From Minisyncoccota bacterium (GTDB lineage Bacteria; Patescibacteriota; Minisyncoccia; UBA6257; 2-01-FULL-56-20), in contig JBAYLC010000005.1 of assembly GCA_041664245.1 (NCBI GenBank), forward strand, positions 8,695 through 72,694: DNA of 64,000 bases, given 5' to 3'. The position numbers and the translations under genes are program-made. Shown here piece after piece: positions 13,852-35,845 of this stretch (position 1 is its first letter; every line of letters begins with the position of its first letter). The notes below the pieces were generated by a model. That model made no database searches and had not been told where the DNA came from. It worked only from the letters and a program-made list of their open reading frames with translations.

Positions 13852-14850
13852 ATGATTATTTCCCGAACACCTTTTCGTATATCCTTTTTCGGAGGGGGCA
13901 CCGATTATCCCGCTTGGTATAAGGAAAATGGTGGCGCCGTTCTTTCGGCATCGATCGATAAATATTGTTACCTTACGTGTCGGTATCTACCTCCATTTTT
14001 TGAGCATAAGACAAGAGTTGTTTGGTCTAAAATTGAAACGGTGGCGCAAACAGAAGAGATTCAACATCCGGCCATCCGGGAGACCATAAAATTTTTAGGA
14101 ATCCAAGATGGCTTACAAATCCATCATGACGCAGATCTTCCCGCACGCTCCGGGATTGGTTCGAGCTCATCCTTTACAGTAGGGCTTTTGAACTCTCTCT
14201 ATACTCTCCTAGGGAAAAGTCCTACCAAAACACAACTTGCGCTCGAAGCGATTCATGTAGAACAAGAACTCGTAAAAGAAAATGTGGGCTCCCAAGATCA
14301 GTCCGCCGCCGCGTTTGGGGGATTTAACAAGATTGAATTTGGTGGTCCTGATCATATTCGCGTGACGCCTATCGGCATATCACAGGCCGATCTCGACGCA
14401 TTACAGAGCCATCTAATGCTTTTTTTTACAGGATTTGCAAGAAATGCCTCAGAGATTGCGGCAGAGCAGATTCGGTTAACCTCGCAGAAAGCAAAAGAGC
14501 TCAAAATAATGTATAGCATGGTAAATACGGCAGAAGAATTACTCGAAAAGAGGGATTTCGACGGTTTTGGAAAACTTCTCCACGAAAATTGGAAGATCAA
14601 AAGGACGCTTTCGTCACAAATCAGCAATAATGCTATTGATGAAATTTATGAATTAGGTAAATCCGCTGGAGCTTTGGGTGGAAAGCTTTTAGGAGCCGGA
14701 GCGGGTGGATTTATACTTTTTTTTGTGAAGCCGGAACATCAGGAAAGGGTAAAAGCGGCGCTTAGTAAGTTGTTGTATGTGCCGATAAAATTTGAAAAAG
14801 AGGGAAGCCAAATTATCTTTAATAATGGCGCGAAAACTTATACTTCCTAA
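13852..14850 (+). CDS. GHMP kinase, D-glycero-alpha-D-manno-heptose 7-phosphate kinase (HddA)-like
   Basis: MIISRTPFRISFFGGGTDYP and PARSGIGSSSSF (GHMP ATP motif). Confidence 0.8.
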   Translation: MIISRTPFRISFFGGGTDYPAWYKENGGAVLSASIDKYCYLTCRYLPPFFEHKTRVVWSKIETVAQTEEIQHPAIRETIKFLGIQDGLQIHHDADLPARSGIGSSSSFTVGLLNSLYTLLGKSPTKTQLALEAIHVEQELVKENVGSQDQSAAAFGGFNKIEFGGPDHIRVTPIGISQADLDALQSHLMLFFTGFARNASEIAAEQIRLTSQKAKELKIMYSMVNTAEELLEKRDFDGFGKLLHENWKIKRTLSSQISNNAIDEIYELGKSAGALGGKLLGAGAGGFILFFVKPEHQERVKAALSKLLYVPIKFEKEGSQIIFNNGAKTYTS

Positions 14851-15568
14851 TAAAATTAAGTATAAAACCAAGGAATCCGCTAATCCTCCAGAGATTGACG
14901 TAGTAATTTTAGCCGGTGGATTGGGAAAACGGTTACGTCGTGCAATCTCCGGTAAGCCTAAGGTGCTCGCAGAGGTGGCTGGGCGGCCGTTTCTCGATAT
15001 ATTAATTAACCATTTATTAACTGCCGGTTTTTATCGGGTTATTTTAAGTATTGGATATTTAAAAGATCAGATCAAAGATCGCTACAAAGGGAAGGGAATT
15101 ATTTTTGCCGAGGAAGAAGATCCTTTGGGAACTGGCGGAGGAATAAAAAATGCCCAACAGTTTATAAAGAGTGAAAATTTTTTTGTTATGAATGGAGATT
15201 CTTGGATATCAGATGGAATAGACATGCGCGCAATTCACGATTTTCATAAAAATAAAAAAGCGTTAATCACTATGGTGCTCTCTCGGCCCAGAGAGGAGAA
15301 GGATTACGGCGCAGTATTCTTGGGTGAAGATAATCGGATCAGCCGTTTTAATGAAAAATCAAAAGAGGAGAATGGCCATTTCTTAAATGCCGGCATCTAT
15401 ATCATGAATAAAAAAGTTTTATCTAAAATGAAAACAACTCCCTTCTCCCTTGAGGTTGATTTTTTTCCAGGATTAATTGGCGGAGCTTTTTATGGCTTCC
15501 CTATAAACGGAGAAGTAATTGATATTGGAACACCCGAAAGATATAAAGCTGCCCAGCAGAAATTTTAA
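14825..15568 (+). CDS. sugar-1-phosphate nucleotidyltransferase (HddC-like guanylyltransferase)
   Basis: VVILAGGLGKRLR motif. Track ORF begins at 14792; the internal ATG at 14825 is a more likely start. Start remains uncertain. Confidence 0.75.
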   Translation: MARKLILPNKIKYKTKESANPPEIDVVILAGGLGKRLRRAISGKPKVLAEVAGRPFLDILINHLLTAGFYRVILSIGYLKDQIKDRYKGKGIIFAEEEDPLGTGGGIKNAQQFIKSENFFVMNGDSWISDGIDMRAIHDFHKNKKALITMVLSRPREEKDYGAVFLGEDNRISRFNEKSKEENGHFLNAGIYIMNKKVLSKMKTTPFSLEVDFFPGLIGGAFYGFPINGEVIDIGTPERYKAAQQKF

Positions 15569-15639
15569 AGCTAATCATGATACTCATCTTCTCCGTAAAA
15601 ATTGTTTTTATATAATAGTCAATAATCTAATCAAAGGGT

Positions 15640-17036: not shown

Positions 17037-17846
17037 ATGAGATCAAAAGTAGAGTTAGAAAAACGGATTGCCCTTATCACGGGCGGAAGTAACGGAATAG
17101 GGAAGGCAATCGCTGTGGCACTCGCCCGCGAAGGCGCTGATATTATTTTATGCGCCCTAGACTCGAAATCTCTGAGGGAAGCACAGGTAGAAATCGAAAA
17201 ACTTGGCGTGAAAGTTTGGAGTATGGCTTTCGACGCAACCGATCCTACTCAAGTAAAAAAATTTTTCTCAGATATTATCGCGAAGATCGGCCAGCTCGAT
17301 ATTCTTGTAAATAACGTCGGCGGTGTTCGCGATCACGCCACATTTAAGGAATTGGATGATAAACAATGGATTGATTCCTGGAAGCTTAACTTTATGACAA
17401 TGGTATATTTTACGCGTGAGGCATTGCCTTTACTCGAGAAATCAGAGCACGCGCGAATTATTAATATTTCAAGTAGTGCTGGTAAGCAGCCTGGAGGATT
17501 TAACCCCCACTATGGAGCGGCAAAAACCGCCGTTAATTCCTTAAGTAAGTATTTGGCGAATCAGCTCGCTCCCCAAAAAATTTTAGTAAATACCATAACT
17601 CCAAGCACAGTGAATGGCGGTTTATGGCATCCCCATATAGAGGATAAAGCGCGGCGTTCCGGAGTTTCCATCGCAGAAGCAACTAGGTTAATGGAAGAAG
17701 AGGTGATTAAGAAAACCCCGCTTGGGCAAGTTGGCACACCAGAAGATGTTGCCGAACTCGTTGCGTTTCTTGCTTCTGATAGAGCTAAGTTTATAACGGG
17801 AACCTGCATCGCCGTTGATGGTGGGCTTATAAAGTCTATTTTCTAA
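17037..17846 (+). CDS. SDR-family oxidoreductase (paralog of 9190-9993)
   Basis: LITGGSNGIGKAIA. Collinear with the 9190 protein across the full length. Confidence 0.85.
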   Translation: MRSKVELEKRIALITGGSNGIGKAIAVALAREGADIILCALDSKSLREAQVEIEKLGVKVWSMAFDATDPTQVKKFFSDIIAKIGQLDILVNNVGGVRDHATFKELDDKQWIDSWKLNFMTMVYFTREALPLLEKSEHARIINISSSAGKQPGGFNPHYGAAKTAVNSLSKYLANQLAPQKILVNTITPSTVNGGLWHPHIEDKARRSGVSIAEATRLMEEEVIKKTPLGQVGTPEDVAELVAFLASDRAKFITGTCIAVDGGLIKSIF

Positions 17847-17867
17847 TCTGGGTAAGCCTGAATTCGG

Positions 17868-19145
17868 TTATTTACTTATAATTTTAACCTCTGGAAGTGG
17901 GATTATGAATTTTGATCTTAAACCTTTCTTTCGAAGCTTCTTAATGATTGTATCCGCAATATGCCAGGAGAAAAGCAATACGTAATCTGGCTGATCTATG
18001 AAAAGTTGTTTTTCGTCAATGATTGGTATGTGCGTACCCGGTGAGTGAAGGCCGAGCTTCAGTGAACTGGATTGTTCAGCGAGGTAGGGAATAAGCAAGG
18101 AATCAATATGGCAGTAATTAAGAATGGGACTCGAGCGGCCCGGGCTTCCAACGCCCGCAATAGTCTTTTCTTTTAGTTTTAGTTCGGAGAGAAATTTCAC
18201 TAATTTTAACCGCGAAGTTTCGATTCTCTTTTTAAAATTAATATAGGTCGGTTGCTTGTAGAGCCCGGCTTTTTCTTCCGCCTGAATAAGCGAGGCGATG
18301 TGAGGGGATTGAGAAAGATTTTTTCCTTTCGTGGCAAAAACCCGAATTGATCCTCCAGATGAGGAGATACGTTCAGCATCCGTGAGGGTGAAGCCGAATT
18401 TTTCGAAAAGAAGCGAAAGTGGCTTCAGTGAATAAAAACGAAGATGTTCATGATACATTGTGTCATATTGCACTTTTTGAATCGTGTCTAAAAGATATTG
18501 TGATTCGGATATAAACACTCCGCCTGGTTTAAGTAGGGTATAAACCCCTTCCACGAAAGAGCTGAGATTATTAATGTGGGCAAAAACGTTTGTTGCGATA
18601 ACAAGCGAGGCGGTGCCGTGTTTTTTCACGATCTGCTTAGCGATCTCCTTCGTAAAGAAATCATTTATAGTCGGTATCCCTTGTTTTATTGCTATTCGCG
18701 CTACGTCCGTTGGCTCGATTCCTAAAACCCGCATCCCCTTTTCCTTGAAAGGTTGGAGCGCAGTGCCGTCGTTTGATCCAATATCCACAATAAGTGATCC
18801 TTTCGGTAGTTTTAATCGTGCCACGGTTGCCTCCGCAAGCTCTTTAAAATTATCAACAAGCATTTGTGTGATCCCTGTTCGATATGGATATTTTTTATGG
18901 AAAACCACTTGTGGCGGCGGAATAAAATCTAATTGAACCAATCCGCACTTAACACACCGTACCACGTTAATCGGGTAGTGAATTTCCTCTTCTTTTATCT
19001 CTTTAGCATTGAGTAAAACATCGCAGGGTGGTTGATGGTCCAAATTTACAATATCGATTAGCTCTTTAGAGCCGCAAATCTGGCAGGTCGTTAACTTTCC
19101 CAATGGGTTTTTATTCATTTTTTTAATTTCCTTTATATTCCGCAA
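17868..19145 (-). CDS. NDP-hexose C-methyltransferase (TylCIII/Methyltransf_13-14 type) with N-terminal Zn ribbon
   Basis: CQICGSKEL...CDVLL...VVRCVKCGLVQLD zinc-binding N-terminus. Class I SAM fold (IVDIGSNDG). Confidence 0.75.
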   Translation of the reverse strand: MRNIKEIKKMNKNPLGKLTTCQICGSKELIDIVNLDHQPPCDVLLNAKEIKEEEIHYPINVVRCVKCGLVQLDFIPPPQVVFHKKYPYRTGITQMLVDNFKELAEATVARLKLPKGSLIVDIGSNDGTALQPFKEKGMRVLGIEPTDVARIAIKQGIPTINDFFTKEIAKQIVKKHGTASLVIATNVFAHINNLSSFVEGVYTLLKPGGVFISESQYLLDTIQKVQYDTMYHEHLRFYSLKPLSLLFEKFGFTLTDAERISSSGGSIRVFATKGKNLSQSPHIASLIQAEEKAGLYKQPTYINFKKRIETSRLKLVKFLSELKLKEKTIAGVGSPGRSSPILNYCHIDSLLIPYLAEQSSSLKLGLHSPGTHIPIIDEKQLFIDQPDYVLLFSWHIADTIIKKLRKKGLRSKFIIPLPEVKIISK

Positions 19146-19233: not shown

Positions 19234-19800
19234 ATGATTTCTATGGATAGTATTGAAAAAGCGTTTGAGCAGCACGGCGAAATAGTGCGAAAAACCGCGG
19301 AAAGCATGGCGGCTGATATAAAAAAAGGCGCCTCAATACTAGAGCAGGCGGTAAAAAACGGTCATTGTGTCTTTATGTGTGGTAATGGGGGTTCGGCGGC
19401 GGATGCCCAGCACTTTGCGGCGGAATTTGTTTGCAAATATAAAAACGACCGGCGCCCCTTCTCGGCGGTAGCTCTTACTGTAGATACTTCTGCGCTAACC
19501 GCGATTGGTAACGATTTTGGCTTTGAGAACGTTTTTAGCCGCCAAATCGAGGCACTCGGTAGGAAAGAAGATGTACTCATTGCAATCACAACAAGCGGAA
19601 TTTCAAAAAATATTTTAAATGCCATCGTTAAAGCAAGGAAGTTAGGACTAACCGTTATAGCGCTTACTGGCGCCCGCGGGAAAAATATGGACGCTGATCT
19701 TGTTATTGCGATACCATCCGAAGAAACTGCGCGCATTCAAGAAATGCATGAACTGATCTATCACTCATGGTGTGAATATATTGAGTCAAAAATTATTTGA
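19234..19800 (+). CDS. gmhA: sedoheptulose-7-phosphate isomerase (SIS domain)
   Basis: VFMCGNGGSAADAQHFAAEFV is the GmhA signature. Track ORF starts at 19192; internal ATG 19234 is more plausible. Confidence 0.85.
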   Translation: MISMDSIEKAFEQHGEIVRKTAESMAADIKKGASILEQAVKNGHCVFMCGNGGSAADAQHFAAEFVCKYKNDRRPFSAVALTVDTSALTAIGNDFGFENVFSRQIEALGRKEDVLIAITTSGISKNILNAIVKARKLGLTVIALTGARGKNMDADLVIAIPSEETARIQEMHELIYHSWCEYIESKII

Positions 19801-21806: not shown

Positions 21807-21871
21807 GCTAGATCTATTTCCGTTTTGGTTTATCCTTGCATTGCGCCCGTCATATTTGCATAATTCCAAAC

Positions 21872-22849
21872 ATGCATCCTAAGATTTCTGTTATTTGCAC
21901 AACATTTAATGTCTGGCCTCGCATGAAAGATACCCTTGAGAGTATTATTGCCCAAACTTACAAAGATTGGGAACTTCTTGTTATGGATGGAGGATCGAAG
22001 GATGGAACGGTTGCGATGGTTGAAAGCTACATTGCCAATGATCCTCGGATAAAAATTTACTCTGAGCCTGACGAAGGAGCGCTGCATGCTCTTGAAAAAG
22101 GCCTCACACGTGCAACTGGAGATTACCTTATTCTTGCATGTGGGCAGGATTATTTTAGTGATCCGAATTGGTTTTCTGCAGCTACGAAGGTTTTAGAGGA
22201 AGACAAGCAGGTTTCTTTAGTGTGGGCATTAGGACGCGGCATAACAGAGGAAGGAAAAGATGTTGGTACCAACGCTTCATATGCTCATTTTATCGACGGG
22301 CGCGGTGAATTGGAGGTTCTATGGATTTTTATAATAAAGTGCCTGGATATCGTGAAGAATCTGCTCTTTGCTGGTTGGGAAAAGAAAAAATTTACCCTGC
22401 GAAAAATTTTTTCCAAGGCGGCTCCGCTCCGAGTTCACTCGATCACCACTTCTGGATTTACAAAAGAAAAATTTCCCCAAAAAGAAGACTGGTTTTTTTA
22501 TTGGCTAAAAACAGGCTTAGTTTTTCCTGATCAATGCCTCGTAGTAAGTAAGAAGGTTTATATCGAATGCGCTCCCCGATACAATATAGGAAGCAAACGG
22601 TTAAATTCCTTTGGTGATTTCGTTTTTAATTTCAACACTAAAGGATATATGGCGTATTTCATACCCGCGTACGTGGGGTATGGTCTGCTTCATGCTAGTA
22701 GTTCTGGAAATAGAGCAGCAAGAGGCATCTATCTTGAAGCTGAAAAATACTTTAGTATGATCCAGGCTTTTAAAAAAAATAATCTCGGGAAAATGATTAC
22801 GTTTCGTGACCGGGACGGTAATTTTGTTTCGGAAAGAAAAGTCAACTAA
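21872..22849 (+). CDS. GT2 glycosyltransferase
   Basis: ISVICTTFN...DWELLVMDGGSKDGT GT-A N-terminus. Track ORF starts at 21836; ATG 21872 preferred. Confidence 0.8.
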   Translation: MHPKISVICTTFNVWPRMKDTLESIIAQTYKDWELLVMDGGSKDGTVAMVESYIANDPRIKIYSEPDEGALHALEKGLTRATGDYLILACGQDYFSDPNWFSAATKVLEEDKQVSLVWALGRGITEEGKDVGTNASYAHFIDGRGELEVLWIFIIKCLDIVKNLLFAGWEKKKFTLRKIFSKAAPLRVHSITTSGFTKEKFPQKEDWFFYWLKTGLVFPDQCLVVSKKVYIECAPRYNIGSKRLNSFGDFVFNFNTKGYMAYFIPAYVGYGLLHASSSGNRAARGIYLEAEKYFSMIQAFKKNNLGKMITFRDRDGNFVSERKVN

Positions 22850-22978
22850 GAGATTTTAAAATAGATTCCAGGGGTAGTGTATTTGTGAACTTAAACAATT
22901 TTCTGATTATATTTATGTATAAAGTAATAGTTTTATTGTATATTAATAAGAACAAAGGCGTTTCTTTATCTCAATAAA

Positions 22979-24025
22979 ATGAAAGTACTTTACGCCGGTA
23001 TGCAGAAAGAAAATTATGATTCTAAAAACAGGGATAGTTTTGAGTATATTAATTTTTTTCTTACGCTGAAAGCTATGCCCGGAGTTGAAGTTTTTGAGCA
23101 CCCATTCGACAGAATCCTTGAAGTAGGCAAAAAAAACTGGAATATAGAGCTATTTGAAATTATTAAAAAAGAAAAACCAGAGCTACTCTTTGTTTTTATG
23201 TATACCGACGAACTTGAGACAGCGATACTTGAAAAAATTAGAAATACAACCACCACTAAGAGTATTGCCTGGTTCGCGGATGACTATTGGCGTTTTTGGA
23301 ACTACTCTAAAAATTGGGCATCTCATTTTGATTGGGTAGTCACTACATATTCTCGAGCCGTCGAATGGTATCAAAAAAAAGGGTTAGGTAATATTCTTCT
23401 ATCTCAGTGGGCTTGTAATACTAACAACTATAAGTCCCTAAATCTCCAAAAGGGTATCGATGTTAGTTTTATTGGGCAATATAAATCTGGCCGAGCCAAA
23501 GTAATCAAGCAACTAAAAAAGGTCGGCATTTCTGTCGAAACTTATGGATTTGGTTGGCCCAACGGCAAGATTAGTCAGGAAAAAATGATAGAAATTTTTA
23601 GCCGCAGCAAAATCAACCTAAACATCAATGCTAGGCCAGGCCTTTTGCACCCTAAGGTAGTCAGCCGTATTTTTTTTAGAAAATCAATAAATAGAATTAA
23701 GGTGGATCTTCACTTAGTCGATAATCTAATGGCCTATTTCCATTTTCCGATCCATCATACTCACGCCCGGCCTTTTGAACTCGCTGGTTGTGGGTCCTTC
23801 GTTATTTCGGGATATTCCGAAGACATAGATAAATACTATCGTAACGGCGAGGAAATGGTTTTCTATAAATCACCTGATGACCTAGCTGAAAAAATCAAGT
23901 ATTATTTATCTCATTCCGAGGAAAGGGAAAAAATTGCTGTTGCTGGCTATAAACGAACGATTTGTGAACACACTTACCAAGCTAGATTTATGGAAATATT
24001 TAAAAAAATCGGGTTAAATTTATAA
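22979..24025 (+). CDS. CgeB-like / GT1-related glycosyltransferase
   Basis: C-terminal FELAGCGSFVIS...YKSPDDL block typical of the CgeB/DUF3880 glycosyltransferase-like family. Confidence 0.55.
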   Translation: MKVLYAGMQKENYDSKNRDSFEYINFFLTLKAMPGVEVFEHPFDRILEVGKKNWNIELFEIIKKEKPELLFVFMYTDELETAILEKIRNTTTTKSIAWFADDYWRFWNYSKNWASHFDWVVTTYSRAVEWYQKKGLGNILLSQWACNTNNYKSLNLQKGIDVSFIGQYKSGRAKVIKQLKKVGISVETYGFGWPNGKISQEKMIEIFSRSKINLNINARPGLLHPKVVSRIFFRKSINRIKVDLHLVDNLMAYFHFPIHHTHARPFELAGCGSFVISGYSEDIDKYYRNGEEMVFYKSPDDLAEKIKYYLSHSEEREKIAVAGYKRTICEHTYQARFMEIFKKIGLNL

Positions 24026-24027
24026 AC

Positions 24028-24735
24028 ATGGAAAATTCAAAACCCCTAAAACTTCATCTTGGTTGCCAAGAAAAATATCTCGATGGATATGTTAATATCG
24101 ATCTTCCGCCAGAAGCCCACACCGTAGAAAAAGTGCGGGTGGATGTCTACGCCGATGTGCGCACTCTTTCTTATGAAGCTGAATCAATAAGCGAAGTGCG
24201 TTCTGAACATCTTCTTGAGCATTTTTCGCGCCAGGAATCCCTTCTACTTCTCGCCCGCTGGCATAAATGGCTGAAGATGGACGGCCTACTCCACGTTGAA
24301 ACCCCCGACTTTGAAGAATCCGCTAAAAAATTTCTAAAAGGCTCGCTCGATGAAAAATTCATGCTCGCTCGCCACATCTTTGGTTCCCATGAGGCGGACT
24401 GGGCCTATCACAAAGATTTTTGGTCGGAAGAAAAATTCCGGTTTGTTCTCGGCGAATTGGGCTATGGTGATTTCCACTTTGATAAAATTTCCAATAATCT
24501 TGAATCAAAATTTCCTGTTTTAAAAGGAACGTTCATTACTAAACCCGAAAGCGTCTTTAAAAAACTTGGGCCTTTAGGATTTAATAATCTGCCCAATATT
24601 ATCTGCTACGCTAAAAAAGTTAAAAAAGAAATTGACTACCTCGCGGCGATAAAGTGCATTCTAGAAAAATCACTCGTGGGCAGAGAAGCCAAAATATTAG
24701 AAGTTTGGCTCCTCGATATAAAAGGGAAAATATAA
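24028..24735 (+). CDS. small class I SAM-dependent methyltransferase-like protein
   Basis: LHLGCQEKYLDGYVNIDL resembles SAM motif I. Coupled to the upstream gene. Confidence 0.45.
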   Translation: MENSKPLKLHLGCQEKYLDGYVNIDLPPEAHTVEKVRVDVYADVRTLSYEAESISEVRSEHLLEHFSRQESLLLLARWHKWLKMDGLLHVETPDFEESAKKFLKGSLDEKFMLARHIFGSHEADWAYHKDFWSEEKFRFVLGELGYGDFHFDKISNNLESKFPVLKGTFITKPESVFKKLGPLGFNNLPNIICYAKKVKKEIDYLAAIKCILEKSLVGREAKILEVWLLDIKGKI

Positions 24736-25608
24736 ATGAAGCCTCTAGTTTCTATCATTATCCCAGCCTATAACGCCGGCAGTTTCCTAGCTGAAACCAT
24801 TGAGAGCGTTATCGCTCAAACGTATTCGAATTGGGAATTAATTATTATTGATGACGGCTCAGTCGATGAAACCGCCAGCGTTGTAAGTGGGTATACAAAT
24901 AAAGATGAGAGAATTAAATATTTTTTTCAAACCAACCAAAAAATGGCTTCAGCTAGAAACGCTGGAATCAAAAGGGCCAGAGGAGAATACGTAGCTTTTT
25001 TAGACGCTGATAATCTTTTTCTTCCAGACAAATTATTTAAACATATTGATTTTATGGAAAGTCACCCAGAGTGCGATGTTTCTTACGGCAAGATCAACTA
25101 TTTTTATGGGAGTAATAAGGCGATTCTCTACAAAAATGAACAGCCAGAATTTTCCGGCGATATTTTTGAAAAAGTTTTACCTCAAAATTTCATTAATGTT
25201 TTGGCGGTGATGGTTAAAAAGGAATTATTTAATAAATTTGGCGCTTTCCAGGAAGGGTGGTATGCCTGCGACGAGCATTACGTTTGGATAAATCTTTCCT
25301 ATCACGGAGCCAAATTTTACCCCTTCCAAGAAGTTGTTGGTCTGTTGCGTCTTCACAATGCCAATGATTCCTATCGTGCGGACTATCTAATAAGGACCGC
25401 AGATCAATTTACTAAAATGCTCGATATCATTGAATCTTGGTTCAATCCAAAGGAGAAAATCAAATACAAAAAAACCATTTTATCCTTGAGAAGGCATTGG
25501 TATCGAATGAGGTTCTTAGGCCAATTGCTTATAACCCCCGCCTTATCGTGGATCCTGATGCCCCTTTTTCTCTATTATCGTAAAACTAAATATCAACTCA
25601 TAAAATAA
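24736..25608 (+). CDS. GT2 glycosyltransferase
   Basis: VSIIIPAYNA...ELIIIDDGSVDET...DADN GT-A signature. Confidence 0.85.
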   Translation: MKPLVSIIIPAYNAGSFLAETIESVIAQTYSNWELIIIDDGSVDETASVVSGYTNKDERIKYFFQTNQKMASARNAGIKRARGEYVAFLDADNLFLPDKLFKHIDFMESHPECDVSYGKINYFYGSNKAILYKNEQPEFSGDIFEKVLPQNFINVLAVMVKKELFNKFGAFQEGWYACDEHYVWINLSYHGAKFYPFQEVVGLLRLHNANDSYRADYLIRTADQFTKMLDIIESWFNPKEKIKYKKTILSLRRHWYRMRFLGQLLITPALSWILMPLFLYYRKTKYQLIK

Positions 25609-25655
25609 ATCGCACATAGACGGATCGAAATTTGTCGTGCTACTCTATTGTTGTT

Positions 25656-26570
25656 ATGGCTAAGGTACTAATTACTGGTGTGGCGGGTTTTATCGGTTCA
25701 AATCTTGCCGAAAAATTGCTCCAAAATGGCCACGAGGTCATCGGTGTTGATGACCTCTCTTACGGTATTCTTGAGCAGGTTCCCAAGGGAGTTGAATTTC
25801 ACAAGATTGATATTCGATCAGAAGATATTTTTTCCCTGTTCAAAGGAGTGCATACGGTATTTCATCTTGCGGCAAAAAACGATTTAATTGCGTGTCAGGA
25901 AAATCCAGTAGAGACTATCAGCGTGAATGTGCACGGCACAATAAATATTTTTGAAGCCTCGCGTCGCGCGGGAGTAAAAAAAGTTGTATTTGCCTCATCT
26001 TCAGCGCTTGAAGAAGGAGAAGCAAGACTCAAGGGATTCTATGCGATCAGTAAGACAGTATGTGAAAAAATTGCGGACGGCTATCACGTCGCATTCGGTT
26101 TGAATTACGTCTTGCTTAGATATTTTAATGTTTATGGCCCCAGGCAGGATTATCGTCGCGCGCATCCACCTGTGATGAGCGCACTTATAATTAAAGTGCT
26201 CAAAGGAGAGCAGCCAATTCTCTACGAGGGATACGAAGAAAATAAGCGGGATTTTATTTATGTGGACGATGCTAATGATTTCAATATTTTATGCATCGAA
26301 AATGAGAATATGAATAATAAATTTTTTCGGCTGGGCACGGGGAAATCCAGTTCAATTGAAGATGTCTGGAATGCAGTTAAGAAAGTTACTGGTTCCAATC
26401 TTGAACCCATCATTAAATCTCGCCTGCCTCTAGACACGCTTTCTGTAACGTTAGCCGACATAACCGAAGCCGGAAAAATCGGCTGGAAAGCTAAGACCTC
26501 GCTAGAGGATGGTCTCAAGGCTCAATTTGAATATTTAAAGAGCGAATTTATAAAAGGGAAAATTAAATAA
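25656..26570 (+). CDS. NAD-dependent epimerase/dehydratase (UDP-hexose 4-epimerase-like)
   Basis: VLITGVAGFIGSNL and YAISK catalytic motif. Track ORF starts at 25632; ATG 25656 preferred. Confidence 0.8.
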   Translation: MAKVLITGVAGFIGSNLAEKLLQNGHEVIGVDDLSYGILEQVPKGVEFHKIDIRSEDIFSLFKGVHTVFHLAAKNDLIACQENPVETISVNVHGTINIFEASRRAGVKKVVFASSSALEEGEARLKGFYAISKTVCEKIADGYHVAFGLNYVLLRYFNVYGPRQDYRRAHPPVMSALIIKVLKGEQPILYEGYEENKRDFIYVDDANDFNILCIENENMNNKFFRLGTGKSSSIEDVWNAVKKVTGSNLEPIIKSRLPLDTLSVTLADITEAGKIGWKAKTSLEDGLKAQFEYLKSEFIKGKIK

Positions 26571-26655: not shown

Positions 26656-27642
26656 ATGATTATAACACGCACTCCTTTCCGAGTTACTTTAGGTGGTGGC
26701 GGTACCGACCTCCCCTCCTACTATTCTAAATACGGTGGATTTATTTTCTCCGCCGGCCTTGATAAATATATGTTTGTGAGTGTTAACCGCCCCGTTGTTG
26801 ATGATCTGATTCGCCTTAAATATTCCAAGAGTGAAACCGTTGAGCGTCTTGATCAGCTTCAACACGAAATAGCTCGGGAAACGCTTCGGATGATGGGCAT
26901 TGAAAAAGGAATTGAGATTAATTCCATTGCCGACATCTCTGCTGGTACCGGTCTTGGTTCGTCCAGTTGCTACGCTGTCGGTCTTCTCCGCGCTCTCCAC
27001 ACTTTAAAGCGGGAATATGTTCCTCTCCAGCAAATTGCCGAAGAAGATTTCAAAGTCGAAGCCGAAATTCTCGGCCGGCCTATCGGCAAGCAAGATCCCT
27101 ACCTCGCCGCTTTCGGCGGGCTTACTATTCTGGAAATTGAAAAGGACGGGAAAGTTAAAATTCGTAAAGCTAATGTTTCTGACGAAACCATTGATGCCTT
27201 AAATCGCAATATGCTCTTGTTTTTCACCGGTACCACTCGTAGTGCTGATGATATTTTAGGGGAACAGTCCACCGGGGTTAAGGAAGAAAAAAAAGATGTT
27301 ATTGAAAGCATGCATTACATTAAAGAGCTTGGTTACGAAATTTTGGAAGCTGTTGAAAGCGGTAATGTTGATGAGGTTGGTCGTTTGTTCCATGCTCATT
27401 GGCAACACAAAAAAAAGATTTCCGCTAAAATGTCCAACGAGCATTTCGATAAAATTTACGAAGTCGCGCGAGAAAATGGCGCTTTGGGTGGAAAAATATC
27501 TGGCGCTGGCGGAGGCGGTTTCTTCACTTTCTACGCGGAAAAAAATCACGGTAAATTAAAAAAGGTAATGGCCGAAATGGGTCTTCGTGAAATGCGCTAT
27601 CATTTTGACCTCGAGGGATCTAAGGTGTTGGTTGATTTCTAA
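26656..27642 (+). CDS. GHMP kinase, HddA-like sugar kinase (second copy)
   Basis: MIITRTPFRVTLGGGGTD and GTGLGSSS. Confidence 0.8.
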   Translation: MIITRTPFRVTLGGGGTDLPSYYSKYGGFIFSAGLDKYMFVSVNRPVVDDLIRLKYSKSETVERLDQLQHEIARETLRMMGIEKGIEINSIADISAGTGLGSSSCYAVGLLRALHTLKREYVPLQQIAEEDFKVEAEILGRPIGKQDPYLAAFGGLTILEIEKDGKVKIRKANVSDETIDALNRNMLLFFTGTTRSADDILGEQSTGVKEEKKDVIESMHYIKELGYEILEAVESGNVDEVGRLFHAHWQHKKKISAKMSNEHFDKIYEVARENGALGGKISGAGGGGFFTFYAEKNHGKLKKVMAEMGLREMRYHFDLEGSKVLVDF

Positions 27643-27657: not shown

Positions 27658-28965
27658 ATGTGGCCCTATAAAATCGCTGTTCTTGGCCTCTGGCATTTGG
27701 GTGAAATCTATTCCGCCGGCCTATCCGACTTAGGGCATCAAGTAGTTGGTTTGAGTGAAGACGAATCATTAATCAGTAATTTTCAAAAAAATATTCCACC
27801 TTTGCCGGAGCCGAATCTTGAAGAAACTCTTAAAAATAATCAAGCCGTTGGTCGCTTAACTTTTAGTGCTGATTTTTCAAAGATTGAAGGTTGCGATGTG
27901 CTTTGGGTTACTTTCGATACCCCAGTAAATAATCAAGATGAAGTTGATCTAACTCTGATTTGGTCAGCGCTGGGAAAATCGTTACCGCATCTGAAAAATC
28001 AATCCCTGATTATTATTTCAAGTCAGATTCCAGTTGGCACTTCAAACAAAATTTGTGAATTTATAAATCAAAAGCGGCCAGATTTAAATTTTGATTATAT
28101 TTATTCCCCGGAAAATCTTCGCCTTGGCGAGGCCCTAGAGTGTTTCAAAAATCCCGGCCGAATTGTTTTTGGTGCTTTTAGTTCCAAGGCATCAGAAAAA
28201 TTTAAAGATATTCTATCGGGCCTTAAAACTGAATTTATCGAAATGAGCCCGGTTTCAGCCGAGATGTCTAAGCACGCCATTAATGCTTTTCTTGCCACTT
28301 CCGTTAGTTTTATAAACGACCTCTCTGATCTTTCCGAAAAAGTTGGAGCCGATATTATCGATGTTTCTCGGGCTCTTAAATCAGAACCAAGAATCGGCCC
28401 CAAGGCTTTTCTCAGCGCCGGTATTGGTTTCGCCGGCGGCACACTTGGTCGGGATCTTCAAGCTTTAATTAAATCCGCCAAAGACCAAAATATTTCTCTG
28501 CCAGTCATTGAAAGTATCTACGAAAAAAATAAAAATCGCGCCGAAGCCATATTAAATATTCTTCAAAAAAATTTAGGGGATTTTAAAAATAAAAAAATTT
28601 CTATTCTTGGCCTGACTTATAAACCCGGGACAAGAACCCTTCGCCGTTCAAGATCTTTGGAAATAGCGCTAAAGTTAAAAAATCTAGGTGCCCGCCTTTC
28701 TCTCTGCGATCCGCAAGTTGATGAGAAGGAACTGGCCTCTTTTGGCGATTTCGATTTTTCTCGCGATCCCTATCAGGCCGTTGCCAACGCTGAGGCCGTG
28801 ATTGTCGCTACCCCTTGGCCGGAGTTCAGGGATTTAGATTTTCAAAAATTAAAAGAAGTGGCATCTTCTAATGCTATTATTTTTGACACCTCTAACTTTT
28901 TTTCAGAAAAAGAATCTATAATTAAAAAAGTCGGTTTTATCTATCTTGGCATTGGCCGCAAATAA
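27658..28965 (+). CDS. UDP-glucose/GDP-mannose dehydrogenase-family protein with degenerate active site (probable pseudo-dehydrogenase or altered chemistry)
   Basis: Fold-level match (KIAVLGL N-terminus, ILGLTYKPGTRTLRRS C-terminal UDP-binding motif). NAD motif reads GLWHLG instead of GxGxxG. Active-site block GFAGGTLGRD aligns to GYGGYCLPKD, so the catalytic Cys aligns to Thr. Confidence 0.7.
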   Translation: MWPYKIAVLGLWHLGEIYSAGLSDLGHQVVGLSEDESLISNFQKNIPPLPEPNLEETLKNNQAVGRLTFSADFSKIEGCDVLWVTFDTPVNNQDEVDLTLIWSALGKSLPHLKNQSLIIISSQIPVGTSNKICEFINQKRPDLNFDYIYSPENLRLGEALECFKNPGRIVFGAFSSKASEKFKDILSGLKTEFIEMSPVSAEMSKHAINAFLATSVSFINDLSDLSEKVGADIIDVSRALKSEPRIGPKAFLSAGIGFAGGTLGRDLQALIKSAKDQNISLPVIESIYEKNKNRAEAILNILQKNLGDFKNKKISILGLTYKPGTRTLRRSRSLEIALKLKNLGARLSLCDPQVDEKELASFGDFDFSRDPYQAVANAEAVIVATPWPEFRDLDFQKLKEVASSNAIIFDTSNFFSEKESIIKKVGFIYLGIGRK

Positions 28966-28969
28966 TTCA

Positions 28970-29800
28970 ATGGATTTAGAAAATAAAGTTGTTCTTATAA
29001 CCGGCGCTAGCCGGGGTATTGGCAAGGCAGTCGCCGCCGCCTTCTTAAAAGAAGGAGCAAAGGTTATGCTTGCCGCCCGCTCCGAAGAAGAATTAAAAAT
29101 CACTCAACAAGAGTTTAAGATTAATTATCCGTTCGTTGAGATCGCTGCTTTTGATGTCTCTAATTTTCTCGAATCAACAGAAGTTGTTAAAAAAACTGTT
29201 GCCGCCTTTGGAACCATCGATATTCTTGTAAATGCCGCGGGAATCTATGGTCCCATTGGTCCGTCTGAAGAAATAGATATAAATCTTTGGAGAAATACCT
29301 ATGAAGTAAATGTTTTTGGAACTTTCCAGATGATCCATCAAGTCGCCCCTATCATGATCAAAAATAAATCCGGCAAAATCATAAATTTTTCCGGCGGTGG
29401 CGATGGGCCCCTTGCCCGTTTCAGCGCTTACAATTCCTCTAAAGTTGCCATTGTCCGCCTTACCGAAACCTTAGCCGTGGAATTTAAAGATTATAATCTT
29501 GAAGTAAATTGTCTCGCCCCTGGGCCGGTCAATACTAAATTTTTAGATGAAGCTCTTGCCGCCGGTGAAGGGAAGGTAGGGCCGGATAGGTATGCTATTC
29601 TTCAAAAACAAAAAGCGGACGGCGGTGTTCCTCCAGAAAAAACTGCCGAGCTCTGCGTTTTTCTAGCTTCATCAAGATCAAATGGCCTAACGGGTAAATT
29701 TTTAAGCGTCGTCTGGGATAAATGGCAAGACTGGGGGCCGGAAGAAATTAAAAAAATTATGGCGACCGATGTCTATACTCTGCGCCGGGTAAAAATATGA
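28970..29800 (+). CDS. SDR-family oxidoreductase
   Basis: VVLITGASRGIGKAVA. Track ORF starts at 28946. Confidence 0.8.
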   Translation: MDLENKVVLITGASRGIGKAVAAAFLKEGAKVMLAARSEEELKITQQEFKINYPFVEIAAFDVSNFLESTEVVKKTVAAFGTIDILVNAAGIYGPIGPSEEIDINLWRNTYEVNVFGTFQMIHQVAPIMIKNKSGKIINFSGGGDGPLARFSAYNSSKVAIVRLTETLAVEFKDYNLEVNCLAPGPVNTKFLDEALAAGEGKVGPDRYAILQKQKADGGVPPEKTAELCVFLASSRSNGLTGKFLSVVWDKWQDWGPEEIKKIMATDVYTLRRVKI

Positions 29801-30804
29801 AAAAAATAAATATCGGCATCGTTGGTGCTGGCAATATCGGCAGTAAAAGAGCTGAGGTTCTCAAAAAATTTAAAAATTGCCACCTTGTTGCCGTAAGTGA
29901 AGTTGATCCAAAAAGAGCCAGTGAATTTGCCAAAACTTACCAATGTGAAATTGTTTCCAAGTGGAGGGACTTGATTAATCGGCCCGATCTTCACGTTGTT
30001 ATTGTTTCGGTTCCTAATGTATTTACTGCTCCCGTTGTTATTGCTGCTCTAAAATCAGGTAAGCATGTTCTCTCTGAGAAGCCTTTTGGAAAAAATTCAA
30101 AAGAATCTCTTGCTATCATTAAGGCTGCCCGCAAAAATAAGCGGCTGGTGAAAGTTGGTTTCAATCATCGTTTCCACGCTGCCATAGGAAAGGCCAAAGA
30201 AATTTTTTATCGGGGAGAAATCGGAAAAATAATGTTTATCCGGTCCCGATACGGTTACGGCGGTCGCTTAGGAATGCAAAACGAATGGCGTTTTAACAAA
30301 AAAATTTCCGGCGGCGGGGAGCTTCTCGATCAAGGGGTTCATATTATTGATCTCTGCCGCTATTTTGCTGGTGAGTTTAAAGAAGTCTTCGGCTCCGTCT
30401 CTTCAAAATTTTGGTCTCCCGGAGTGGACGACAACGCTTTTGCCATAATGAAAAATGAAAAAGTTACCGCTAGTTTTCACGTTAGTGCTACCCAATGGAA
30501 GAATCTTTTTTCTTTTGAAATTTACGGTGACAAAGGTTTTTTAGATATTGAAGGAAAGGGTGGCAGCTACGGCCGGGAAACCCTTATTTTTGGAAAAAGA
30601 AAAAAAGAGTTTGGAATTCCTATTTTAAAAAATTTCGAATTTTCGGAAGATATTAGTTGGGAAAAAGAATGGCAGAATTTTTTGGGCGCCCTAGAAAATA
30701 AAAATAAAATTAACGGCGACATGAATGATGGTTATTTTGCTAACTATATCGCCGAAGCGATTTATAAATCTTCTAAATTAAATAAAATAGTTAGAATCAG
30801 CTGA
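29797..30804 (+). CDS. Gfo/Idh/MocA-family NAD(P) oxidoreductase
   Basis: INIGIVGAGNIG, EKP, and the characteristic length. Confidence 0.85.
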   Translation: MKKINIGIVGAGNIGSKRAEVLKKFKNCHLVAVSEVDPKRASEFAKTYQCEIVSKWRDLINRPDLHVVIVSVPNVFTAPVVIAALKSGKHVLSEKPFGKNSKESLAIIKAARKNKRLVKVGFNHRFHAAIGKAKEIFYRGEIGKIMFIRSRYGYGGRLGMQNEWRFNKKISGGGELLDQGVHIIDLCRYFAGEFKEVFGSVSSKFWSPGVDDNAFAIMKNEKVTASFHVSATQWKNLFSFEIYGDKGFLDIEGKGGSYGRETLIFGKRKKEFGIPILKNFEFSEDISWEKEWQNFLGALENKNKINGDMNDGYFANYIAEAIYKSSKLNKIVRIS

Positions 30805-30853: not shown

Positions 30854-31582
30854 ATGCCTCAAAAAATCGAAGATTTGAAGATAAAGATTTTTGCTGATGG
30901 CGCCGAAAAAGAAGGAATGGTTGAGCTGGCCAAACAGCCCTTCATTAAGGGTTTTACCACTAACCCGACTTTAATGCGGAAGGCTGGTATTACTGATTAT
31001 GTAAGTTTTGCCAAAGATATTCTTTCGGTTATAAAAGACAAATCCGTTTCTTTTGAAGTTTTTTCTGATGAATTTAATGAGATGGAACGCCAAGCGCGTC
31101 TCATTGCCTCTTGGGCTCCTAATGTTTATGTGAAAATTCCGATTTCTAACACAAAAGGGGAGTCGTCTTTTGATTTGGTAAAAAAACTTGCTTCAAGCGG
31201 CGTGAAAGTGAACGTCACGGCTATTTTAACCGTTCCCCAAACTGAGCACATAGTTAAGGCGCTTTCGCCCAGTGTTCCCTCCATAATCTCGGTTTTCGCC
31301 GGCCGAATCGCTGACACCGGAGTTGATCCAATGCCAATTATGAAAGAAGCTAAACAGATCATGACTGCATTTCCAAACGCCGAGCTTCTTTGGGCGAGTA
31401 CCCGGGAACTATATAACATCTATCAAGCCGAAGTAGTTGGGGCCGACATTATCACCGTTACCCACGACATCTTGAAAAAATTAGGGAAAGTAGGTTATGA
31501 TCATCACGAATTGTCAGTTGAAACCGTCAAAATGTTTTATGATGACGGCCAAAAAGTAGGGTATACCCTCTACGAATCTTAA
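30854..31582 (+). CDS. transaldolase-family protein (fructose-6-phosphate aldolase / short transaldolase)
   Basis: KIFADGA...GFTTNPTL...KIPIS motifs of the short TalC/FSA group. Plausible sedoheptulose-7-P supplier for the adjacent heptose genes. Confidence 0.75.
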   Translation: MPQKIEDLKIKIFADGAEKEGMVELAKQPFIKGFTTNPTLMRKAGITDYVSFAKDILSVIKDKSVSFEVFSDEFNEMERQARLIASWAPNVYVKIPISNTKGESSFDLVKKLASSGVKVNVTAILTVPQTEHIVKALSPSVPSIISVFAGRIADTGVDPMPIMKEAKQIMTAFPNAELLWASTRELYNIYQAEVVGADIITVTHDILKKLGKVGYDHHELSVETVKMFYDDGQKVGYTLYES

Positions 31583-31587
31583 GAAAT

Positions 31588-32202
31588 ATGTACTCAGAAT
31601 ATATAAATAGCTATCTAAATGAGGTTAAAACGATCGTTGATAAAATTGATCGAAATTCGATTAATAAATTTATAGAAGTTTTGAAAGGGGTTCGGGATCA
31701 AAAGGGGCGCTTGTTCATTATTGGCATCGGCGGCGGTGCCGGTCACGCCAGTCACGCGGTGAACGACTTCCGCAAACTCACCAGTATTGAATCCTATACT
31801 CCCGTTGATAACGTTTCGGAAATGACCGCCAGAGCCAATGACGATGGCTGGCACACGATTTTTTCTAATTGGCTTGCGGGAAGCTCTTTAAATAATAAAG
31901 ATGCCGTTTTTGTTTTCTCTGTTGGCGGCGGAAATTCCGAGAAAAATATCAGCCCTAACATTGTTGAAGCTCTTAAATATGCCAAGCAAGTTGGCGCGAA
32001 AGTAGTTGGAATTGTCGGTCGGGACGGCGGTTACACCGCCCAAGTGGCCGATGCCTGCGTTATTGTTCCAGTTGTAAATTCTGAAAACGTCACTCCTCAC
32101 ACCGAAGCTTTTCAGGCTATCATCTGGCACCTCATTGTTTCTCATCCCGGTTTTAAAACCAAAGAAGGTAAATGGGAGTCCGTCCAAACTCGAATAAGTT
32201 AG
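31588..32202 (+). CDS. SIS-domain sugar-phosphate isomerase (divergent GmhA-like)
   Basis: FIIGIGGGAGHASHAVNDF parallels GmhA GNGGSAADAQHFAAE. Confidence 0.65.
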   Translation: MYSEYINSYLNEVKTIVDKIDRNSINKFIEVLKGVRDQKGRLFIIGIGGGAGHASHAVNDFRKLTSIESYTPVDNVSEMTARANDDGWHTIFSNWLAGSSLNNKDAVFVFSVGGGNSEKNISPNIVEALKYAKQVGAKVVGIVGRDGGYTAQVADACVIVPVVNSENVTPHTEAFQAIIWHLIVSHPGFKTKEGKWESVQTRIS

Positions 32203-32765
32203 CCAGAAGGAAAGCTGTTTTTCTCGACCGCGACGGAACTATAATCCATCACGTCGAGTTGATGCACCGGGTCGCTGATTTGAAATTTTTCCCGCAAACT
32301 GCGAGTGCAATCAAATCGCTAAATCGGCTCGGATTTTTAGTGGTGGTAATTACAAACCAGCCAGTTATCGCGCGCGGGATTATCACTCCCAAAGAAGTTG
32401 ATGCGATCCACGCCGTCTTAATAGAACGCCTGAATAAAAAAGGCGCTCGTATTGATGCCGTCTATTTTTGCCCCCATCATCCCAACGCCGACTTAAAAAA
32501 ATATCGCCTCAAATGCCGCTGTCGCAAACCAGCCCCCGGGCTTATCCTGAAAGCCCTTAAGGAATTCAATATTAATCCTAAAAAAAGTTTTATGATCGGC
32601 GATTCGGTGATTGATATTGTTGCCGGGCATAAAGCCAAACTCAAAACTATTCTTGTTAAAACCGGTCCCGGCCACGCCCGAGACAAAGAATTCGTTGATA
32701 TCAAACCGAATTTTACTTCCGAAAATTTACTCGCCGCCGTTAAGATCGTTGAAGATCATTCTTGA
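32172..32765 (+). CDS. gmhB: D,D-heptose 1,7-bisphosphate phosphatase (HAD-IIIA)
   Basis: AVFLDRDGTI, Zn site CPHHP...CRCRKP, GDS.ID. Confidence 0.8.
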   Translation: MGVRPNSNKLARRKAVFLDRDGTIIHHVELMHRVADLKFFPQTASAIKSLNRLGFLVVVITNQPVIARGIITPKEVDAIHAVLIERLNKKGARIDAVYFCPHHPNADLKKYRLKCRCRKPAPGLILKALKEFNINPKKSFMIGDSVIDIVAGHKAKLKTILVKTGPGHARDKEFVDIKPNFTSENLLAAVKIVEDHS

Positions 32766-32782
32766 TTTTCGTTTTATAAATC

Positions 32783-33535
32783 ATGAATTCTAATTCATCT
32801 AAAATAACTCAGGCCGTCATTCTCTGCGCCGGTCTTGGTACTCGCCTTCGGCCGTTAACCGATACCGTTCCCAAGCCGATGATTCCTCTTTTAGGTAAGC
32901 CGATGCTTGAGTGGAATATTGAGAATTTAAAAAGCCATGGTGTCGCCGAATTTTTTATTAATCTTCATCACCTTCCCGAGGTGGTCAAAAATTATTTCGG
33001 CGATGGTTCGCGTTTTGGGATAAAAATAAATTATAGTTACGAACCGGAAATCTTGGGCACTGCCGGCGGCCTCAAAAATTTCGAGAATTTGGTCGGAGAA
33101 AATTTCTTTTTGATTTATGGCGATATGTTAAGTTTAGTTGATTATTCCAAAATGGCCACTGCCTTTTTTTCGAAAAAAGATTCGATCGGTATGCAACGGA
33201 CCAAGAAAACCAGTGACTATGCGGATGCCGATGTGGCCGAACTGGACAGTGATATGAAATTTATAAAAATCCACCCTAAACCCCATCTCGAATCCTATCC
33301 CAACGCCCATCGCATGCGCGGCGTCTTTATATTCAGAAAAGAAATTTTTTCTCTAATTCCCGCCAAAACTTTTTACGAAATCGGGCGCCAGCTTCTTCCT
33401 GGCGTTGTGGCTAGGGGAAAAAATTTCTATGGTTATGAGTGTGAGGAATATTCCAAAGGAATTGATACAGTAGATAAATATAAAGAGGTGGAAAGTTATC
33501 TAAAAAATATTAATTTAAAAGAGTTTATAAAATAA
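32783..33535 (+). CDS. sugar-1-phosphate nucleotidyltransferase (HddC-like, second copy)
   Basis: AVILCAGLGTRLRPLT. Confidence 0.75.
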   Translation: MNSNSSKITQAVILCAGLGTRLRPLTDTVPKPMIPLLGKPMLEWNIENLKSHGVAEFFINLHHLPEVVKNYFGDGSRFGIKINYSYEPEILGTAGGLKNFENLVGENFFLIYGDMLSLVDYSKMATAFFSKKDSIGMQRTKKTSDYADADVAELDSDMKFIKIHPKPHLESYPNAHRMRGVFIFRKEIFSLIPAKTFYEIGRQLLPGVVARGKNFYGYECEEYSKGIDTVDKYKEVESYLKNINLKEFIK

Positions 33536-35844: not shown

Positions 35845-35845
35845 C

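Follow-up and report, generated by a model that had tools for sequence, protein, structure and literature searches.

Two described pathways come closest to a pair of sugar-activation gene sets, here called set A and set B, that lie in a surface-glycan locus of a Minisyncoccota bacterium (NCBI GenBank assembly GCA_041664245.1, contig JBAYLC010000005.1, positions 8,695 to 72,694; this whole stretch of 64,000 nucleotides is referred to as the window, and coordinates are counted from its first letter). The first is the GDP-D-glycero-alpha-D-manno-heptose pathway of Aneurinibacillus thermoaerophilus, Campylobacter jejuni, Yersinia pseudotuberculosis and Burkholderia pseudomallei (WcbL/M/N), which set A matches in its GmhA, HddA-like kinase and HddC-like transferase. 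The second is the lincomycin and celesticetin pathway of Streptomyces, whose clusters encode, mostly in one operon, the transaldolase LmbR, isomerase LmbN, kinase LmbP, phosphatase LmbK and nucleotidyltransferase LmbO, and also the epimerase LmbM, dehydrogenase LmbL, NAD(P) oxidoreductase LmbZ and aminotransferase LmbS (PMC12945683; PMC4351081). LmbR transfers a C3 unit from fructose 6-phosphate or sedoheptulose 7-phosphate to ribose 5-phosphate, giving octulose 8-phosphate (PMC5854111), and GDP-lincosamide arises from GDP-octose through the action of LmbM, LmbL, CcbZ and CcbS (PMC12945683). Set B appears to work most like this lincosamide octose pathway, although we do not claim membership in it. 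We put the probability that set B builds a nucleoside diphosphate (NDP)-octose, probably an 8-deoxy-octose, at roughly 0.55.

Set B belongs to a conserved and widespread nine-gene unit, cassette B, whose genes stand in the following order (SDR, short-chain dehydrogenase/reductase; UGDH, UDP-glucose 6-dehydrogenase):

25632..26570, + strand, extended-SDR epimerase in an LmbM-like position (PF01370, 171 bits)
26656..27642, + strand, GHMP kinase, kinB, in an LmbP-like position (HddA model, 165 bits)
27658..28965, + strand, UGDH homologue lacking the catalytic cysteine, in an LmbL-like position (three UGDH domains; TIGR03026, 312 bits)
28946..29800, + strand, classical SDR, a putative ketoreductase, where the aminotransferase LmbS would stand (PF00106, 172 bits)
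29797..30804, + strand, Gfo/Idh/MocA oxidoreductase in an LmbZ-like position (PF01408 and PF22725)
30854..31582, + strand, transaldolase in an LmbR-like position (TIGR02134)
31588..32202, + strand, SIS isomerase, SISB, in an LmbN-like position, not GmhA
32172..32765, + strand, GmhB-like HAD-IIIA phosphatase in an LmbK-like position (PRK08942, 156 bits, cut-off 178)
32783..33535, + strand, nucleotidyltransferase, ntB, in an LmbO-like position (PF00483, 104 bits)

A comparison of this operon with the lincosamide sugar pathway finds same-family counterparts for eight of the nine Lmb sugar enzymes, a correspondence that holds at the level of family and architecture only. Transaldolase, isomerase, kinase, phosphatase and nucleotidyltransferase occur together in both, in the window between 26656 and 33535, and the dehydrogenase homologue, the NAD(P) oxidoreductase and the SDR epimerase find the same families at 27658-28965, 29797-30804 and 25632-26570, respectively. 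Protein sizes are also close, at 435 amino acids against 436 for CcbL, 204 against 202 for CcbN and 328 against 323 for CcbP. The nearest non-lincosamide relatives are reported for the Ccb proteins from Acidobacteria, Sorangium and Thermodesulfatator (PMC4351081), and cassette B likewise occurs in Acidobacteria. The GDP-heptose pathway shares with set B the logic of isomerase, kinase, phosphatase and transferase, but set B adds a transaldolase and three redox enzymes, its isomerase is not GmhA and its transferase is not HddC. In its make-up the cassette is closer to the lincomycin octose pathway than to a heptose pathway. A first-pass annotation of the window had described set B as a second heptose toolkit flanked by a Gfo/Idh/MocA oxidoreductase, an SDR and a UGDH homologue. 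These flanking genes are indeed present, but they belong to the cassette itself, as does the epimerase at 25632-26570; this fixed nine-gene composition and the differing isomerase and transferase speak against a second heptose toolkit.

The distribution of the cassette was followed by a genome scan with an alignment of the UGDH homologue, a tblastn search of the 80 best loci with the proteins of the window and an analysis of gene order, with counts taken over the 33 loci that extend at least 8 kb on each side of the UGDH homologue (the long loci). Relatives of the UGDH homologue were found in at least 579 species genomes. All 33 long loci contain the UGDH homologue; the epimerase and the Gfo/Idh/MocA enzyme are each present in 32, the SDR and the kinase in 30 each, the transaldolase in 27, the SIS gene in 26, the nucleotidyltransferase in 23 and the phosphatase in 21, the genes often spanning 7.6-9 kb. 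Gene order is shuffled between phyla while a UGDH-like/SDR/Gfo block and a transaldolase/SIS/phosphatase block persist, and the classical SDR almost always adjoins the UGDH homologue. Gene content, conservation and linkage are in this respect directly observed across more than a dozen phyla, the carriers including Patescibacteria, Chloroflexota, Acidobacteriota, Verrucomicrobiota, Planctomycetota, Elusimicrobia, one cyanobacterium, Ignavibacteria, Bacteroidetes, Gemmatimonadales, Nitrospiraceae, Chlamydiales, Burkholderiaceae and one archaeon; the Burkholderiaceae and cyanobacterial carriers are metagenome-assembled genomes (MAGs). Cultured carriers fall into two groups: Rhizobium jaguaris CCGE525, with an uninterrupted run of the nine genes on a chromid (NZ_CP032695.1, about 973.9-981.9 kb), and Lawsonia intracellularis, a pig pathogen, in which the cassette lies on plasmid 3 under generic RefSeq gene names only. 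Complete genomes with the cassette include OY968796.1 and OZ251221.1. Glycosyltransferases or exopolysaccharide genes flank the cassette in Lawsonia and in a Rhizobium MAG. Canonical GmhA was looked for beside the UGDH-like/SDR/Gfo block in two truncated cassettes (L064 and L026), and none was found there. A cassette reduced to three genes was also seen in Patescibacteria (L002/L003, L012 and L018), where an FSA-type transaldolase stands side by side with the cysteine-less UGDH homologue and the SDR within teichoic-acid-like loci (Glyphos_transf, FkbH-like and carrier proteins); a transaldolase therefore accompanies the redox pair even where isomerase, kinase and transferase are missing.

The cassette B transaldolase is of the staphylococcal type, scoring 332 bits on TIGR02134 against a cut-off of 282, and in the long loci it usually adjoins the SIS gene. 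In some phyla a non-orthologous FSA/TalC-type transaldolase occupies the same slot, and the use of two non-orthologous types in one position suggests that transaldolase activity itself is under selection. The gene is retained in cassettes of Rhizobium, Burkholderiaceae and the cyanobacterium, all of which, like the carrier Lawsonia, should possess a complete pentose-phosphate pathway, and no transaldolase is present in any of the six set-A-type heptose loci examined, those from the phylum of this bacterium included. Because of this retention, its adjacency to the SIS gene, the refilling of its slot and its absence from set-A-type loci, the cassette transaldolase is best regarded as a selected member of the pathway and not as a supply gene. 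The first-pass proposal that it furnishes sedoheptulose 7-phosphate is accordingly disfavoured by its retention in the former organisms and its absence from the six loci. A possible link of the staphylococcal-type transaldolase to the O-antigen heptose of Coxiella was considered and dropped, as no transaldolase is mentioned in the papers concerned and Coxiella has a kinase of the HldE type.

The cassette isomerase SISB is not GmhA, judging by its sequence. It reaches just 52 of the 209 bits that the gmhA model sets as its cut-off, and fails every GmhA model; the family, 73-85% identical, bears only the NCBI name "SIS domain-containing protein". SISB, whose predicted structure has a pLDDT of 76, has the SIS fold in common with GmhA and retains the equivalents of His61 and His180, but two catalytic or metal-binding positions are altered (Glu65 to Asp and Gln172 to Glu) and the phosphate-binding loop carries a 6-9-residue insertion, all three changes being shared by both cassette SIS subtypes. 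In the SIS family, the 150 best cluster representatives include 17 clusters that join the SIS domain to a GmhB-like phosphatase, 12 that join it to a nucleotidyltransferase and one that joins it to a full transaldolase, this last a singleton to be taken with caution. The SIS-phosphatase fusions occur in both domain orders, and the fusion proteins include P0364, P0366, P0371 and P0401. These fusions, seen directly in the proteins, suggest that the steps of the cassette are tied together. The nearest non-lincosamide relative reported for CcbN is a Sorangium protein annotated as "sugar phosphatase" (PMC4351081), a label that would fit an SIS-phosphatase fusion. An LmbN-like fusion of carrier protein and isomerase was not found among the long SIS representatives within the best 150, nor were Lmb-named proteins among the best 120-150 homologues listed. 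Matches of SISB to Streptomyces plasmids proved to lie in unrelated glycogen/GalT contexts.

A comparison of the 27658-28965 protein with UDP-glucose 6-dehydrogenase (4a7p, Sphingomonas elodea) shows the same three domains and the same Lys, Asn and Asp catalytic positions. The two differ at the nucleophilic cysteine, which lies in GGSCFPKD in 4a7p and is replaced by leucine, in GGTLGRD, in the window protein and throughout the cassette subfamily. Leucine occupies this site in 106 of the 120 best homologues, as GF[SA]GGTLGRD or GWSGGTLGRD (GFAGGTLGRD in the window protein), and is invariant in a 26-sequence alignment in which Lys205, Asn209 and Asp266 are invariant too. The first-pass annotation had called this protein a degenerate UGDH homologue: the catalytic cysteine is indeed lost, but the leucine is a conserved family feature, so the protein is not decayed and represents a conserved new form of the UGDH family. 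Loss of the nucleophile makes the four-electron oxidation to a uronic acid impossible, and the uronic product offered as an option in the same annotation is thereby ruled out. An alcohol-to-carbonyl step alone is plausible for this enzyme, since in a heptose or octose the exocyclic C6 carries a secondary alcohol that would be oxidised to a ketone, a reaction for which the second-oxidation cysteine is dispensable.

The remaining cassette enzymes were compared with solved structures, family models and their set A counterparts (kinA, ntA and GmhA). The best solved relatives of kinB are WcbL, 3k85 and 4n3o; kinases from other cassettes share 43-84% identity with kinB, and kinA just 37%. The best solved relative of ntB is the UTP-glucose-1-phosphate uridylyltransferase-like 8x7s (139 bits); ntB reaches 90 bits on the HddC model, against a cut-off of 300, and no HddC match was found for it among solved structures at E<1e-15. 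Clustering of the second kinase or nucleotidyltransferase with hexose-1-phosphate enzymes had been named in the first-pass annotation as the result that would weigh against heptose, and the outcome is divided: ntB lies outside HddC, nearest to the UGPase-like 8x7s, whereas kinB groups with heptose kinases. The epimerase also matches GalE and heptose-epimerase models, and the solved relatives of the Gfo/Idh/MocA enzyme are sugar 3-dehydrogenases and inositol dehydrogenases. The phosphatase passes HAD-IIIA domain models, with a JGI gene call that begins at 32262, and is the only HAD-IIIA/GmhB-like gene among the open reading frames (ORFs) scanned, in agreement with the single GmhB noted earlier. 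Between the two sets, the kinases are 37% identical (E 4e-64), the nucleotidyltransferases 27% (E 3e-18) and the SIS proteins 25% (E 5e-5), which suggests paralogues that are homologous far beyond chance and yet anciently diverged. These values uphold the earlier view of two separate kinase/isomerase/nucleotidyltransferase sets for different activated sugars, and the low identities and separate orthogroups rule out a recent duplication.

ORF and domain scans of the 64-kb window show that ~200-42300 forms a single large surface-glycan locus, with many glycosyltransferases between Wzy and Wzx, and that all ORFs listed in the first-pass annotation are present, intact, on the + strand and of the stated domain family. 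The features that frame the cassette are:

203-1624, Wzy, assigned from domain scans
21836..25608, + strand, GT2 glycosyltransferase, glycosyltransferase, 235-amino-acid protein and GT2 glycosyltransferase, directly upstream of cassette B and in the same operon
33585..36766, - strand, beta-PGM-like HAD protein, small membrane protein, IMPase-like protein and HIT-like protein (HLHFHIL motif), from domain assignments
37758-39245, - strand, Wzx
40997-42331, - strand, initiating sugar transferase

The four upstream genes and cassette B are co-directional, with gaps of at most 85 nt, and tblastn finds this glycosyltransferase block syntenic with the cassette, at 41-78% identity, in Liptonbacteria and Saccharibacteria (L004, L005, L014 and L021). 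Its enzymes are likely the transferases for the cassette B sugar.

On the lincomycin model, from which we infer all substrates, products and the chain length for set B, the transaldolase would move a C3 unit from fructose 6-phosphate or sedoheptulose 7-phosphate to ribose 5-phosphate to form octulose 8-phosphate, and SISB would isomerise this to octose 8-phosphate. Phosphorylation of C1 by kinB, removal of the 8-phosphate by the HAD-IIIA phosphatase and nucleotidyl transfer by ntB would then yield NDP-octose. The epimerase, the cysteine-less UGDH homologue and the Gfo/Idh/MocA enzyme could remodel the side chain, the C6 alcohol becoming a ketone with a net 6,8-dehydration. In the lincomycin route a 6-keto octose loses its 8-hydroxyl in such a 6,8-dehydration; a heptose is incapable of this reaction, and the chemistry would therefore fit an octose. 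The cassette SDR would reduce the keto group, where the lincomycin pathway uses transamination, to give NDP-8-deoxy-octose; the presence of an SDR in the aminotransferase's place thus points to a reduced product, 8-deoxy-octose, rather than lincosamine. The upstream glycosyltransferases would finally add the sugar to the Wzx/Wzy-assembled surface glycan.

Several observations weigh against an octose. LmbR and CcbR are 222-amino-acid transaldolases, whereas the window enzyme is of the 242-amino-acid staphylococcal type. The lincomycin pathway has a pyridoxal-phosphate-dependent aminotransferase (LmbS/CcbS) and cassette B has none, with the conserved classical SDR at 28946-29800 instead; the DegT aminotransferase at 11258-12436 goes with set A. 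Placing LmbZ in the Gfo/Idh/MocA family is our assumption, as the papers say just "NAD(P)-dependent oxidoreductase". The kinase kinB and the phosphatase stand nearest to heptose enzymes, although the same would be expected of LmbP and LmbK, so that this point does not discriminate. Transaldolase is missing from 6 of the 33 long loci, and a few loci hold just the epimerase/UGDH-like/SDR/Gfo block, so these four enzymes may act on other NDP-sugars too. We know of no octose other than Kdo in bacterial surface glycans, and our literature searches returned neither such an octose nor a description of cassette B. The two systems also differ in setting, an antibiotic cluster for the lincomycin genes and a Wzx/Wzy glycan locus for cassette B, and the cassette lacks carrier-protein fusions, thiol chemistry and amide-forming genes.

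An alternative that we consider possible, though rather unlikely, is that the product of set B is another heptose nucleotide, modified or of different configuration, with SISB yielding a non-manno heptose 7-phosphate (e.g., gluco), the UGDH-like, Gfo/Idh/MocA and SDR enzymes oxidising and reducing or epimerising C6, and the transaldolase boosting the supply of sedoheptulose 7-phosphate. The best scores of kinB and the phosphatase do fall on heptose-pathway models and structures, GmhA is the nearest solved relative of SISB, and JGI labels the SISB family sedoheptulose-7-phosphate isomerase. Some cassettes do without a transaldolase, and the reduced central metabolism of Patescibacteria makes an in-locus supply enzyme conceivable; a supply role is harder to reconcile with cassettes that keep the enzyme in Rhizobium, Burkholderiaceae and the cyanobacterium, where a complete pentose-phosphate pathway is expected, and with the six set-A-type heptose loci that lack it. 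To our knowledge the characterised heptose clusters of Aneurinibacillus, Campylobacter, Yersinia and Burkholderia also contain no transaldolase, which we count against a second heptose. The isomerase has diverged from GmhA at catalytic and phosphate-loop positions, the nucleotidyltransferase is not HddC-like, and four redox or epimerase enzymes seem too many for a two-carbon side chain.

The same gene content could in principle serve a sugar-derived small molecule (a solute, signal or natural-product building block), with the position in a glycan locus being incidental. The sole characterised pathway of this make-up does serve an antibiotic, and the adjoining phosphatase-like and HIT-like genes could free the sugar. 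This seems very improbable to us, given that the cassette follows closely on, and runs in the same direction as, the four genes of the glycosyltransferase block between Wzy and Wzx, that the synteny of block and cassette extends to other Patescibacteria, and that glycosyltransferase or exopolysaccharide genes are neighbours in Lawsonia and the Rhizobium MAG. Still less credible is that sets A and B are redundant duplicates making the same GDP-heptose: they have three domain families in common and HddA is the top-scoring model for either kinase, but identities are just 37%, 27% and 25%, each set forms separate orthogroups with its own conserved neighbours in many phyla, and SISB fails the GmhA models.

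The octose reading may extend beyond this genome. As far as we know, eight-carbon sugars other than Kdo-type acids are absent from the surface glycans described for bacteria, and activated octoses formed by way of a transaldolase are known from lincosamide antibiotics only. We suggest tentatively, at a little short of even odds, that hundreds of species in more than a dozen phyla make a transaldolase-initiated, nucleotide-activated non-Kdo C8 sugar for their surface glycans, probably an 8-deoxy-octose, and that the octose genes of lincomycin are a specialised offshoot of this primary pathway of the cell envelope. If so, this would be a new monosaccharide class in bacterial envelopes, including those of the little-understood candidate phyla radiation (CPR) bacteria, and would provide an evolutionary source for the lincomycin sugar genes and a function for the cysteine-less branch of the UGDH family; if the product is a heptose variant, it would be a modest extension of known heptose chemistry. 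The presence of the cassette in the culturable R. jaguaris CCGE525 and L. intracellularis leaves the idea open to direct testing.

Set A, by comparison, reads as an HddA/HddC/GmhA-type heptose toolkit with heavy tailoring. Its three genes and the companions that follow them across six other loci are:

13852..14850, + strand, GHMP kinase, kinA, HddA-like (GHMP N and C domains)
14825..15568, + strand, nucleotidyltransferase, ntA, HddC-like (PF00483)
19234..19800, + strand, canonical GmhA (the ORF opens at GTG 19192)
5830-6774, companion SDR (64-82% identity across the six loci)
6881-8392, companion B12 radical-SAM enzyme (41-47% identity across the six loci)
11258-12436, companion DegT aminotransferase, RfbH/PseC-like (76-85% identity across the six loci)

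The best NCBIfam model for kinA is HddA (155 bits, E 2e-45, cut-off 600) and its best solved relatives are the heptose kinases 3k85, 4usk (WcbL) and 4n3o. The window's kinA is identical to an NCBI protein from a 'Candidatus Paceibacterota bacterium' MAG, in keeping with a CPR/Patescibacteria host. Members of the kinA orthogroup share 64-84% identity across lineages as far apart as Patescibacteria, Desulfobacteraceae and Omnitrophota, and in protein P0160 a kinA-type kinase is fused to a nucleotidyltransferase. The start of ntA overlaps the end of kinA by 26 nt; ntA scores 119 bits on the HddC model (cut-off 300), and its best solved relative is HddC of the Yersinia 6-deoxy-manno-heptose pathway (5xhw/6jq8), matched over the full length with 121 bits. 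The set A GmhA reaches 207 bits on PRK13936 (E 2e-61, cut-off 276) and 187 bits on TIGR00441, in both cases slightly under the curated cut-offs, and retains all four of the positions His61, Glu65, Gln172 and His180 in the alignment.

In the six other loci, kinA and ntA are accompanied by close relatives of other window genes. One of them, L093, carries GmhB and GmhA within the same compact module as the kinase/transferase pair, 59% identical to the window protein at 32172-32765 and 50% identical to the window GmhA, respectively; another, L092, encodes a transferase-GmhB fusion. Loci related to set A thus hold all four genes of the GDP-heptose pathway (GmhA, HddA, GmhB and HddC types). Because ntA is closest to HddC and L093 carries GmhB and GmhA in the same module, set A appears to be heptose-type, and the earlier assignment of set A as a heptose toolkit is borne out by the GmhA model score, the HddC and heptose-kinase structures and L093. 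Set A differs from the described pathway in having no HAD-IIIA gene of its own, the sole one found in the ORFs scanned sitting in set B, and in scoring throughout below the NCBI equivalog cut-offs; the GmhB-like phosphatase at 32172-32765 is probably common to both sets. Set A would therefore be an addition, under these cut-offs, to the known GDP-heptose pathway family, predicted to make an NDP-heptose from sedoheptulose 7-phosphate, most likely GDP-D-glycero-alpha-D-manno-heptose. The module also contains a minimal thiamine-dependent E1 alpha/beta-like pair (202 and 193 amino acids) or a split transketolase, and the neighbouring SDR, aminotransferase, B12-radical-SAM and thiamine enzymes could tailor the product into a heavily modified heptose, possibly branched or chain-extended.

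The set A module is conserved across phyla (window 5830-13842 and 17037-19145; loci L087-L089 and L092-L094) and often includes, in addition, an SDR, an aldo-keto reductase and a sugar C-methyltransferase. L093 is a self-contained version with ribosomal genes on its flanks. Two classical SDRs of the window, at 9190-9993 and 17037-17846, are 59% identical, a far younger duplication than that of the kinase, transferase and isomerase pairs.

Among the genes adjoining cassette B, the 235-amino-acid protein (24028-24735) of the upstream block has no Pfam or NCBIfam match; it is 68-78% identical in the Liptonbacteria and Saccharibacteria loci, better conserved than the glycosyltransferases on either side, and its N-terminus (LHLGCQ...GYVNID) resembles a class I methyltransferase motif with an altered glycine signature. 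Downstream, the HIT-like protein has 306 amino acids, and genes of the IMPase-like and HIT-like types again lie next to the cassette or an ntB-like transferase in several Patescibacteria loci (L004/L005, L009, L010, L023 and L026) and in L092. The accessory genes at 33585-36766 might release or re-activate a sugar 1-phosphate, for instance in an exchange of nucleotide carrier.

Other parts of the locus point to further sugars. The locus holds three nucleotidyltransferases, not two: the third, a sugar-1-phosphate nucleotidyltransferase at 39225-39947 (PF00483, 131 bits), lies just after Wzx and is followed by an extended SDR, and this pair (39225-40967), together with the RfbH-like DegT protein (11258-12436), could supply a deoxyhexose branch. 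A complete GDP-L-fucose set is found at 2245-5823, comprising Gmd (472 bits), a Nudix hydrolase, an Fcl-like SDR and a GT10 fucosyltransferase-like protein, so fucose is probably also present in the surface glycan. A sugar C-methyltransferase with a zinc-binding domain and a C-terminal Methyltransf_14 domain is encoded at 17868-19145 on the - strand within a run of + strand genes, an arrangement that is repeated in L089 at 75% identity.

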